Assembly (NCBI GenBank): GCA_943788675.1
Contig: CALSRE010000001.1
Location: 595,573 to 659,572, forward strand
Reading direction: 5' to 3'
DNA length: 64,000 bases
Origin: an uncultured bacterium
Lineage (GTDB): Bacteria; Fidelibacterota; Marinisomatia; Marinisomatales; Marinisomataceae
Positions 10,110-12,173 of this stretch are shown piece after piece. The first letter of the stretch is position 1, and each line of letters opens with the position of its first letter. A model generated the notes under the pieces. It had not been told where the DNA came from, made no database searches, and saw only the letters and a program-made list of their open reading frames with translations. A program made the position numbers and the translations under genes.

Positions 10110-12173
10110 ATGCATATTTCAAAATTAGAATTATTTGGCTTCAAATCTTTTGCAAAGAAAGAAACAGTATTGTTTGATAGTGGAATTACTGGAATAGTTG
10201 GACCTAATGGCTGCGGTAAAACAAATATTGTTGATGCTATTCGATGGGTATTAGGAGAACAAAAAACATCAAGATTGAGAAGTTCAAAAATGGAAGATGT
10301 TATTTTTAATGGAGCATCAAATGTTAAACCTCTTGGTCTTTGCGAAGTATTTTTAACAATTGAGAATAATAAAGGGCTTCTACCTGTTGAATACAAGGAA
10401 GTAGAAATTGGCAGAAGGCTCTATAGATCTGGAGAAAGTGAATATTTTATCAATAGGAACAACTGTCGATTAAAAGATATTTCAAATCTTTTTGTAGATA
10501 CTGGCCTCACTTCAGATGCTTATTCTGTAATTGAGTTAAACATGATTGAGCAGATATTATCAGATAAGGATGATAGTAGAAGACAAATGTTTGAAGAGGC
10601 AGCGGGAGTTAATAAATATAAAGCTAAAAGAAGATCTGCGTTGAAAAAATTTGATCTTAATTCAAGAGATTTAGATAGAATTGATGATATCGTTGTAGAG
10701 ATTAAATTGCAAGTTAAAGCTTTAGAGCTGCAACTTAAAAGATTCAAAAGACATGAAAAACTTTCCCATGAACTAAAAGAGCTTGAGATAAATTTAGCTT
10801 CTGCTAGAATAATTGAATTAGATGAAATTATTGGTCCGCTACAAGAAATGTTAAAAGAGAAAAATAAGCTTTTGAAAAAAAATACATCTAAAAAGAAAGT
10901 AGAAAGCCATGAGTTTGATAATGCTAGAGAAAATTATTTGAATGAGAAAGATTCACTCGCAAAAATGAAAAGTAAGGTTGATAAATTAACGGAAGAGTTG
11001 TTATCTGAAATTCAACAAAAAAATCAAGAATCTTCTAAAGGGGTAGGGCTATTAGAGGACGAGTTGACAATAAAAATTAATCAACTTAATCAGTTTGATA
11101 AAGATTATATCAAAATTGTTTCTGAGTGTGAAGAGTGCGGAAAGAATATCATCCAGACCGATAAAAAATATGAAAAGCTTAAAGCGAGCATTCAAGATTA
11201 TAAAGATAAAATTGACATCTATAAGAAAGAAAAAGAAGTAGATTTTTCAAAAATGGATCAGTCAATAAAGGCTATTCAAGAAAAAATAAATTTAAACAAC
11301 CTAGAGCTTGAGAAGAAAGAAAATGCTTTAAATAAAGCGTTTATAAAAATGGAGTCTATTAGAGCAAAATTAGATTCTGATAAATTTAGTAAAGATGACC
11401 TTTTTTATGATATAAAAGATGCAGAAATGAAGATTGCTGAATCTAAAATAAAAAAAACTCAAATTGAACAAAATTTAGTTGAAAAATTTGGCAAAGAAGT
11501 CGAATTAACAGTTCCCAAAAAATATAATATATCTGATATGGTTTATAAGCTAGATAAAGTTAAAAGAAGTATTGAGAATATTGGCCCTATTAATTGGGCA
11601 GTTAAAGATGAGTATGAAGAAAAAAGCAATAGATTAAATATTTTATTAGAACAAAAAGCGGATCTTATTGAGGCTGAAAGCAATCTTAAAGAAGCTATTA
11701 AGAAAATTGATAAAGTTGCTCAAGAACAATTTTATGATACCTTCAATCAAGTAAAAGAAAATTTTGAAAACATGTTTACTGTTTTCTTTAATGGCGGAAA
11801 AGGCAGTATTGAATTATCTAATTCAGATGAACCCTTAAATTCTGAAATAAATATTTTTGCGCAACCTCCTGGTAAAAGAAATAGCTCTTTGAAGATGTTA
11901 TCAGCAGGAGAAAAGTCTTTAACAGCTATTGCATTACTCTTTTCAATTTATCAATATAAGCCTAGCCCATTTTGTATTTTAGATGAAATCGATGCTCCTC
12001 TGGATGACATAAATATTAGAAAATTTACAGAGGTAATTAGGGACTACAGTAAATCAACTCAGTTTATTATGGTAACTCATAATAAGTTAACTATGGAGTC
12101 AGCAGATTGTATTTATGGTGTTACAGCTGAAAAAAGAGGTATTTCTAAGTTGATGTCCATTGATTTTTCATAA
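10110..12173 (+). CDS. smc: SMC-family chromosome-condensation ATPase, unusually short (687 aa) with no recognisable hinge
   Basis: The ATPase head is intact: SMC-type Walker A [32 protein letters not shown] head-to-coil transition, signature LSAGEKS, Walker B [12 protein letters not shown] and VTHN. Only about 320 K/E/L-rich coiled-coil residues lie between the head halves. Confidence 0.85.
   Translation: [687 protein letters not shown]

Follow-up and report, generated by a model that had tools for sequence, protein, structure and literature searches.

A hinge-less, short-armed Smc with a candidate zinc-hook-like tip in a low-GC marine Marinimicrobia clade

Introduction

The hinge is regarded as defining for a true SMC protein and as important to its mechanism: it is where the protein dimerises, it binds DNA, and it has been proposed as a gate. 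The length of the arms is considered to be tuned. The Rad50 hook is reportedly interchangeable with the SMC hinge, and RecN, a short-armed and hinge-less ATPase of the SMC superfamily, dimerises through the tip of its coiled coil. Here we describe a 687-residue Smc that lacks a detectable hinge and carries a CxxC motif at the apex of its shortened arms. It is encoded by an open reading frame at 10110..12173 (+ strand, stop codon included), with an ATG start, in a stretch of 64,000 nucleotides from a low-GC (~30%) genome, corresponding to positions 595,573–659,572 of the forward strand of contig CALSRE010000001.1 (assembly GCA_943788675.1). This whole stretch is referred to below as the window, and its features are given in its own coordinates.

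A similar architecture has been engineered. In the study by Bürmann et al. (2017; PMC5344682), the arm of Bacillus subtilis Smc is given as 344 residues, and a chimera in which the hinge was exchanged for the zinc hook of Pyrococcus furiosus Rad50, Smc(Zh), is described as supporting normal growth; the authors conclude that it makes no difference to chromosome segregation in B. subtilis how the dimerisation domain is folded. The study also reports that functional Smc arm lengths are periodic, with a period of ~91 residues, and that natural prokaryotic arms have modes at 238, 341 and 515 residues and perhaps minor ones at 163 and 423. Archaea have natural SMC-related ATPases, known as ASRP/ClsN/Sph, whose coiled coils are short and carry a zinc-hook motif in place of a hinge (PMC9389158). 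More recently, an abundant oceanic cluster of 'hinge-less SMC' proteins was reported from OM-RGC (Sussfeld et al. 2025, PMC12153180); no regular SMC co-occurred with it in the GORG-Tropics single-cell genomes, it was placed near Actinobacteria, and CXXC was stated to be absent.

An earlier reading of the window, made from the letters alone and here called the sequence-only reading, had taken the gene product for an SMC head on short arms joined by a Rad50-like CxxC, a hybrid that it did not recognise as described. In the literature that we searched, no bacterial Smc with a hook-like tip is described from nature; the architecture has been preceded, however, by the engineered chimera (PMC5344682) and by the hinge-less oceanic SMCs of 2025 (PMC12153180).

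Results

The short gene is a positional orthologue of smc

We put at roughly 0.55 the probability of the full reading, in which the window protein is the housekeeping Smc (the bacterial condensin ATPase) of a low-GC marine clade of Marinimicrobia (SAR406) and its arm tips are joined through zinc. The protein scores 715.4 bits against the NCBIfam equivalog model of bacterial Smc (TIGR02168, cut-off 567.35), in two collinear stretches between which ~520 central profile positions are skipped, and Pfam returns SMC_N alone, at residues 3–679. The best sequence matches in the PDB are the Smc heads of B. subtilis and Geobacillus (E 1e-120). The best Foldseek matches are likewise prokaryotic Smc heads with joint, led by 5XEI (titled 'Smc head domain with a coiled coil and joint'), and Rad50 first appears at rank 26.

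The genes around smc have the same order as in relatives with a full-length protein. The block folK-dNK-OMP-rsmE-HIT (7187..10106, +; assigned by Pfam) lies upstream, and rpsP, encoding ribosomal protein S16 (12256..13056, +; PF00886), lies directly downstream. The upstream order precedes the short smc at nine loci (L001–L009) and the full-length Marinimicrobia smc at six (L012, L017–L019, L021 and L022), and the adjacency of smc and rpsP is kept at every short-form locus. By position, then, the short gene is orthologous to full-length smc and has been altered in place. The window as a whole is core chromosome, with groEL, dnaB, relA/spoT, ftsK, ruvABC, cysS and the gene for ribosomal protein S16.

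A paralogue of Smc could conceivably account for a protein of this kind, and so could another member of the SMC superfamily, such as RecN, Rad50/SbcC, an ASRP/ClsN protein of archaeal type or a defence ATPase (Lamassu LmuB, for instance). Proteins of the RecN, Rad50/SbcC, ASRP/ClsN and LmuB types are similar in size, and weak matches to several of them are obtained. These matches are nevertheless far under the curated cut-offs: 53 bits against 408 for RecN (TIGR00634), 74 against 300 for ASRP (NF045487), and 38–49 against 700–1000 for the Rad50 equivalogs, with the SbcC models likewise far below, whereas the TIGR02168 score lies above its own. The PADLOC matches to mad3 (225 bits) and LmuB (73 bits) amount to generic head similarity only. 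In neighbour-joining trees of the head domains the clade of ~700-residue forms is monophyletic in 100 of 100 bootstrap replicates and nests among Marinimicrobia Smc. The neighbours of smc are housekeeping genes, and no gene for a nuclease, Mre11/SbcD or a defence partner was found among them. No second SMC-like gene is present in the 64-kb window, and no full-length smc from a short-form assembly is among the best 80 GTDB loci, which is suggestive only. Synteny, the equivalog score and the PADLOC results rule out a paralogue or a defence ATPase, and a different superfamily member is very improbable overall.

The short form is widespread and under purifying selection

Hundreds of independent contigs in ENA, JGI, NCBI, Logan and Tara data carry the short form at 687–709 residues. 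Its cluster representatives have lengths of 687, 701, 703 or 709 residues, and those with a name are labelled Candidatus Marinimicrobia/Neomarinimicrobiota. Among 1.84 billion representatives at 50% identity, a single short-form cluster was found (P0121, 1172 bits); the next match scores 619 bits, and from there down the matches are ordinary SMCs of 1,166–1,293 residues. Nine GTDB species representatives have the short form, including single-cell genomes and contigs of 0.5–1 Mb; the gene is complete in eight of them (L001–L004 and L006–L009; 687–709 residues) and ends at the contig edge in the ninth (L005), with 60–85% identity to the window protein. Elsewhere, Smc has 1,172–1,182 residues in other Marinimicrobia and ~1,180–1,200 in Bacteroidota and Ignavibacteriota.

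Between the closer pairs of short-form orthologues, the ratio of nonsynonymous to synonymous substitution rates (dN/dS, Nei–Gojobori) is 0.01–0.08 for the heads and 0.03–0.14 for the arms, values that are approximate since dS is near saturation. Purifying selection on the short-form smc is strong.

We also considered whether the short gene might be an artefact of assembly or a full-length smc decaying into a pseudogene. Artefacts of this type do occur: at an unrelated locus in Ignavibacteriota (L075, 6001–8574), an smc of apparently 857 codons results from a frameshift in a normal gene, and its C-terminal part is GC-rich nonsense. That gene retains the hinge and was rejected as a further short SMC, its frameshifted C-terminus being an artefact of a long-read metagenome-assembled genome. 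For the window gene, replication across hundreds of contigs, single-cell genomes and a 1.05-Mb contig, the fixed lengths and the intact reading frames with dN/dS of 0.01–0.14 rule out a collapsed assembly or pseudogene, and the deletion is symmetrical and preserves the register of the coiled coil. The chance that an artefact explains the gene is accordingly negligible.

The hinge is absent and the arms are halved

No Pfam match to SMC_hinge was obtained for the whole window protein or, at E ≤ 10, for any apex segment examined, its own included. The full-length proteins of L013 and L017, which served as positive control, give PF06470 at residues ~520–634 with E ~1e-20. The sequence-only reading had seen no hinge, and no hinge-domain match indeed falls within residues 300–400.

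The AlphaFold2 model of the window protein, computed from 73 aligned sequences, has a mean predicted local distance difference test score (pLDDT) of 82. In this model a single helix of residues 168–338 leaves the head, is broken at 339–345 (E-C-E-E-C-G-K) and is followed by a return helix of residues 346–460; after a 13-residue break (461–473), helices 474–491 and 498–559 lead back into the head. The helix 168–338 is uninterrupted in the model of a four-cysteine member as well. The N-terminal arm helix (residues 172–338; 10623..11123, +) is collinear with residues 172–338 of full-length SMC and has dN/dS of 0.03–0.09 in the closer pairs. The predicted apex, E339-C-E-E-C-G-K345 (11124..11144, +), is the sole helix break in mid-arm, and the C-terminal arm helix (residues 346–490; 11145..11579, +) comprises the modelled helices 346–460 and 474–491. 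The CxxC itself (C340 and C343; nucleotides 11127–11138, +; codons TGT GAA GAG TGC, with C340 at 11127–11129 and C343 at 11136–11138) lies exactly at the predicted apex of the coiled coil, where the sequence-only reading had placed it. The break at residues 461–473 (nucleotides 11490–11528, +) is read as the Smc 'joint'; the modelled loop and the match to 5XEI indicate that the joint would be kept in the short form.

Arm lengths were measured between two conserved motifs of the head, EEAAGxxKY and IGxxN, as the low complexity of the coiled coil leaves the end-points of the deletion fuzzy in MAFFT and phmmer alignments. Between these anchors the N- and C-terminal arms have 168 and 144–145 residues in the ~700-residue forms, close to the earlier count of about 165 and 147 (168 and 145 for the window protein). 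Two further hinge-less lineages, described below, have 256 and 236 (866-residue form) and 194 and 170 (754-residue form). For full-length relatives the arms are estimated at ~326 and ~304, given 806 residues between the anchors and an assumed hinge of ~176 residues. The N-terminal arm exceeds the C-terminal one by 20–24 residues in all three hinge-less lineages, and by an estimated ~22 in full-length forms if the hinge spans about residues 497–672 of L013. This equal difference implies that the two helices of each hinge-less lineage were cut at positions that pair in canonical Smc, and that the CxxC stands there. The genuine SMC-type head, the half-length arms and the missing hinge of the sequence-only reading are all borne out by TIGR02168, Pfam and these measurements.

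The mean arms of the short (~156) and 866-residue (~246) forms are near the 163- and 238-residue modes of Bürmann et al. and differ from each other by ~90 residues, a correspondence that is suggestive only, as the definitions of the arm boundaries differ. The 754-residue form (mean arm ~182) falls outside these modes, and the mean for full-length forms is ~315.

The apex exists in three states within the short clade

All short forms have the flanks [10 protein letters not shown] ... [VI]IETDKKY in common, and the insert between them occurs in three states. In proteins of 709 residues (707 in L006) it reads [DN]C-x-x-CG-x8-C-x-x-CGK followed by ~8 more residues, that is, two CxxCG knuckles nine residues apart. 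The two-cysteine state, which is that of the window, is found at 687–689 residues and reads E-C-x-x-C-G-K-[NT]. Proteins of 701–703 residues have a cysteine-free tip of 22 residues, N-x-D-V-T-K-S-L-S-x-E-S-x-x-K-F-K-x-K-N-Y-T. The states are separated by in-frame indels and substitutions. A frameshifted four-cysteine tip was ruled out as the source of the cysteine-free one: the other frames of the four-cysteine DNA have stops and show no resemblance to it.

In a tree built without the apex, the four-cysteine state occupies the deepest branch (L006) and is also found in L008. L001 (two cysteines) stands beside L002 (none), and the window protein beside L003 (none).

All four cysteines are invariant in 54 distinct four-cysteine sequences, in which 31% of the arm columns are invariant; the chance of this is ~0.01 with columns treated as independent. 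Both cysteines are also invariant in the 46 distinct two-cysteine sequences, including L004 and L005 at ~70% identity, and the x positions vary. Searches with the four-cysteine segments gave sub-threshold matches of zinc-ribbon type only (Zn_ribbon_3, zf-C4pol and HypA).

Hinge loss with a midpoint CxxC recurs in other lineages

A protein of 866 residues (P0141; L081, 6001–8601) has no hinge and carries N-C-K-Y-C, with the CxxC at residues 428–431 and the protein midpoint at 433. Its gene lies on a contig from Tara Oceans with 26.7% GC, downstream of folB-folK-dNK, an arrangement like that of Marinimicrobia. Used as a query, it retrieved ~20 representatives of 865–867 residues that are 44–66% identical, none with a precomputed hinge match. 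A block F[KR]YDKNC[KQ][YF]C[VIL]xNG is almost invariant in all 21 aligned sequences of this lineage. Both cysteines of the CxxC are invariant where only 9% of the arm columns are; the 12-mer with the highest conservation in the 495-residue arm is directly adjacent to the CxxC. Two further cysteines of the arm vary. A second locus of the lineage is L083 (7001–9598; P0406, GCA_001757025.1). Both loci are of ~27% GC, and the gene context is folB-folK-dNK-...-smc-pgk-tpi-secG.

At L083, a gene for a 232-residue protein (9591–10289) overlaps the stop of the 865-residue smc by 8 nucleotides and is absent from L081; it was examined as a kleisin candidate and rejected, having no family match. A RecN-sized SMC_N/AAA_23 ATPase is encoded at 15231–16598 of the same locus, 5.6 kb downstream of smc.

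The third lineage consists of two Logan contigs of ~43% GC (L082, 6001–8265, P0201; L084, 9549–11813, P0507), with smc in the context gidA-gidB-lepA-pilZ-smc-ftsY. P0201 has 754 residues, no hinge, the canonical LSGGER signature and L-C-S-E-C, with the CxxC at 366–369 and the midpoint at 377. No further relatives were found in the JGI metagenome scan. In the head-domain bootstrap, the ~700-residue clade groups with P0141 in 53 of 100 replicates and with P0201 in none (0/100). Hinge loss with a midpoint CxxC has thus come about on no fewer than two occasions, perhaps three. Nothing speaks more strongly for a functional, hook-like role of the motif than these repeated losses, taken with the strict conservation in the 866-residue lineage.

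Is the tip joined through zinc?

A lone CxxC can complete a tetrahedral Cys4 site only with the CxxC of a second protomer, which makes a Rad50-like link between chains the most economical reading of the two-cysteine form. We would give such an inter-chain zinc link at the tips of the window protein about even odds.

A number of observations weigh against a tip joined in this way. The Rad50_zn_hook profile, the search for which had been proposed by the sequence-only reading, gave no Pfam match to the whole window protein, nor to any apex segment at E ≤ 10, and the window apex has no match among solved hook structures in the PDB. The pLDDT at the apex is ~50–60 in the window protein and <50 in the four-cysteine form, where the insert 339–366 is uninformative on a zinc module. 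Conservation of the apex cysteines does not extend to the clade, an outcome that the sequence-only reading had named among those that would refute it: among 241 listed cluster representatives, 143 have none, 55 four and 43 two. The cysteine-free tip accounts for 78 of the 121 representatives in the P0001–P0121 set and for 65 of 120 in a second listing. Two-cysteine and cysteine-free forms are interleaved in the crown of the non-apex tree, which suggests repeated conversion, or exchange of apex alleles between closely related populations. The invariance of the two cysteines would by itself be weak evidence, given that 50% of the arm columns are invariant in that set, and the double CxxC of the deepest branch could bind zinc within one chain and have no part in dimerisation. 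No ScpA or ScpB was found by Pfam on 40 open reading frames of the window or by a six-frame motif search of the 64-kb window and the fetched flanks. Since abundant and closely related sisters have no apex cysteine, a zinc link can be neither indispensable nor the sole thing that holds the dimer together. Of the zinc-hook-like hybrid proposed earlier, the CxxC at the apex is retained and is joined by two more hinge-less lineages; clade-wide cysteines and a hook profile match are not found.

These points lend themselves to an explanation in which the CxxC, in this same orthologue without a hinge, is a vestige of an ancestral zinc knuckle, a Cys4 site within one chain by which the turn of the hairpin was capped and stabilised. 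The tips would then be unjoined, the dimer would be held by ATP-engaged heads, a kleisin bridge and side-by-side arms, and the two-cysteine state would be an intermediate towards the cysteine-free one. Equal nine-residue spacing of the two knuckles in L006, the deepest branch, and in L008 fits this course, as do the common flanks of the two-cysteine and cysteine-free forms, which differ by in-frame indels and substitutions, and the weak zinc-ribbon-type matches of the four-cysteine segments. The cysteine-free forms, moreover, are the most numerous and are under equal purifying selection, so the clade works without apex cysteines. A decaying vestige, however, sits poorly with the retention of both cysteines in 46 of 46 two-cysteine sequences with variable x positions. 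The lone CxxC, moreover, offers no obvious single-chain zinc site. In the 865–867-residue lineage it is found without ever being one of four cysteines and marks the most conserved part of the arm, and the independent 754-residue lineage has a lone CxxC too. The vestige is the main rival reading; on balance we find it less likely than the inter-chain zinc link, which we prefer.

Other chemistry of the apex cysteines, for example a redox-sensitive disulfide between chains or another metal, draws on the fact that CxxC is also a classic redox motif. The bacterial cytoplasm is reducing, however, and paired knuckles of the CxxCG[KR] type, here nine residues apart, are typical of structural zinc sites. 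The apex position also parallels that of the Rad50 and ClsN/ASRP hooks (PMC9389158), and we consider such chemistry improbable.

Motifs of the ATPase head

The 687-residue reading frame and the SMC-type head motifs named by the sequence-only reading are present in alignment A1. The N-terminal half of the head (residues 1–171; 10110..10622, +) is marked by invariant columns in A1, by beta/alpha head elements in the AlphaFold2 model and by dN/dS of 0.01–0.06. It contains Walker A, GPNGCGKT from G31 (nucleotides 10200–10223, +), in which G31, P32, N33, G34, G36 and K37 are invariant, and the motif [11 protein letters not shown] at residues 161–171 (+). The C-terminal half (residues 491–687; 11580..12170, +) begins with the IGPIN motif (from residue 491, +), aligns to the B. 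subtilis Smc head 5xg3 and has dN/dS of 0.05–0.11. Here the signature LSAGEKS (residues 597–603; nucleotides 11898–11918, +), the Walker B/D-loop segment [12 protein letters not shown] (residues 621–632; nucleotides 11970–12005, +) and the H-loop VTHN (residues 655–658, +) were located in A1, with S598, G600, E601, D625, E626, D628 and H657 invariant. Walker A, Walker B, VTHN and the 161–171 motif keep their earlier numbering, and the signature moves one residue towards the N-terminus. The translation contains seven cysteines, at 35, 78, 119, 340, 343, 622 and 666.

The description of the head as catalytically intact holds insofar as the ABC motifs are present and invariant, with a caveat for two substitutions. 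The Q-loop glutamine is replaced by leucine (E142-L143; IEL, against ISQ in B. subtilis), and the signature reads LSAGE (residues 597–601), not LSGGE. Both are common to most full-length SMCs of Marinimicrobia and the FCB group (the Q-loop leucine in 47 of 52), which makes them traits of the lineage; defects peculiar to the short form are thereby ruled out.

Other features of the window

The rpsP gene downstream of smc (12256–13056, +) encodes 266 residues, with the S16 domain at residues 9–69; behind it, (A/K)EEAP-type repeats form a tail of ~180 residues. The DNA of the tail (12664–13095) is composed of degenerate tandem repeats with periods of 15, 27 and 42 nucleotides. Pfam gives no match at E ≤ 0.01 for an open reading frame of 196 codons at 38766–39356 (+), between ftsK and a gene for a HAD phosphatase. 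Of the window's open reading frames of at least 120 residues, 57 of 59 lie on the + strand, and the other two are on the − strand inside longer + frames. All 2-kb bins from 1 to 64000 show positive GC skew. Gene co-orientation is thus unusually complete along the 64 kb.

Discussion

The arrangement of the short Smc arose through the loss in place of ~490 central residues, comprising the entire hinge together with the half of each arm helix that adjoins it. As the cut is symmetrical, the remaining helices of ~160–170 residues still pair in the canonical register, in an arm of ~25 nm, or about half the normal length (estimated at ~0.15 nm per residue). With head, neck and joint kept, the ATPase cycle could run as in Smc-ScpAB, and the contacts with ScpA and ParB would presumably be retained. 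The four-cysteine tip is likely to form a putative Zn(Cys)4 site, of which the window form would keep one knuckle, S-E-C-E-E-C-G-K. In the window protein the two arms would be joined by zinc at their tips, much as in a Rad50 hook, in place of dimerisation through the hinge; alignment of arm with arm and bridging of the heads by a kleisin probably help to hold the dimer, or some other tip contact has evolved. We infer that the window Smc binds zinc, dimerises at its tip and has ScpAB and ParB as partners.

A broader scenario may be offered tentatively, and we think it somewhat more probably wrong than right. Bacterial Smc would have swapped its hinge for a zinc-hook-like CxxC tip at least twice independently, with arms shortened from ~315 to ~246 to ~156 residues in steps of roughly the superhelical period. 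In one abundant clade of the surface ocean, the tip would then have lost first one of its two knuckles, leaving a hook between chains, and finally zinc altogether, possibly under zinc scarcity. If this were true, the hinge fold, DNA binding by the hinge and a fixed arm of 50 nm would all be dispensable for a natural housekeeping condensin. A natural, abundant and constrained hinge-less Smc with halved arms and tips of four to zero cysteines amounts to an evolutionary test of what is essential to SMC complexes that extrude loops or segregate chromosomes. At ~700 residues the proteins are also compact enough for structural work, as natural counterparts of the Smc–zinc-hook and Mini-Smc constructs.

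The window protein resembles the bacterial Smc of Smc-ScpAB in the sequence and fold of the head, the neck, the joint, the antiparallel intramolecular coiled coil and the locus. It differs in having no hinge, arms of ~156–170 residues as against an estimated ~315 in full-length relatives, and a seven-residue CxxC loop at the tip. Like Rad50/SbcC it is an SMC-superfamily ATPase whose antiparallel coiled coil has a CxxC at its apex, and its CxxCG[KR]-like tip sequence resembles Rad50 hook motifs; its head, however, is of Smc type, it gives no hook match, no Mre11/SbcD gene lies nearby, and the cysteines are lost in many orthologues. RecN offers a possible model for the cysteine-free forms, and differs in head subtype, locus and function. 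The ASRP/ClsN proteins are an archaea-specific family of separate descent, whose model NF045487 has a cut-off of 300 bits, far above the 74 bits of the window protein.

The 'hinge-less SMC' of Sussfeld et al. (PMC12153180) is likewise abundant, marine and without a hinge; the window form differs from it in having a CxxC and in belonging to Marinimicrobia. Two short-form genomes have AG-type isolate names and are taken as GORG-style single-cell genomes. The Sussfeld cluster may be the cysteine-free form of the short clade or a further independent case. For hinge-less ocean SMCs of this kind, left unexplained in the recent report, the present data supply a clear Marinimicrobia/SAR406 assignment together with an evolutionary series. 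A close parallel is offered by the Smc(Zh) and Mini-Smc constructs of PMC5344682: an Smc head and arm with a CxxC apex for a hinge, with the arms of the window protein near the 163-residue minor mode. The window arms are much shorter than the 253–267 residues at which shortened constructs regained function in that text, and the tip has no detectable homology to the Rad50 hook. Unlike these constructs the window Smc is natural, and by analogy it would be the natural counterpart of the engineered Smc(Zh) chimera.

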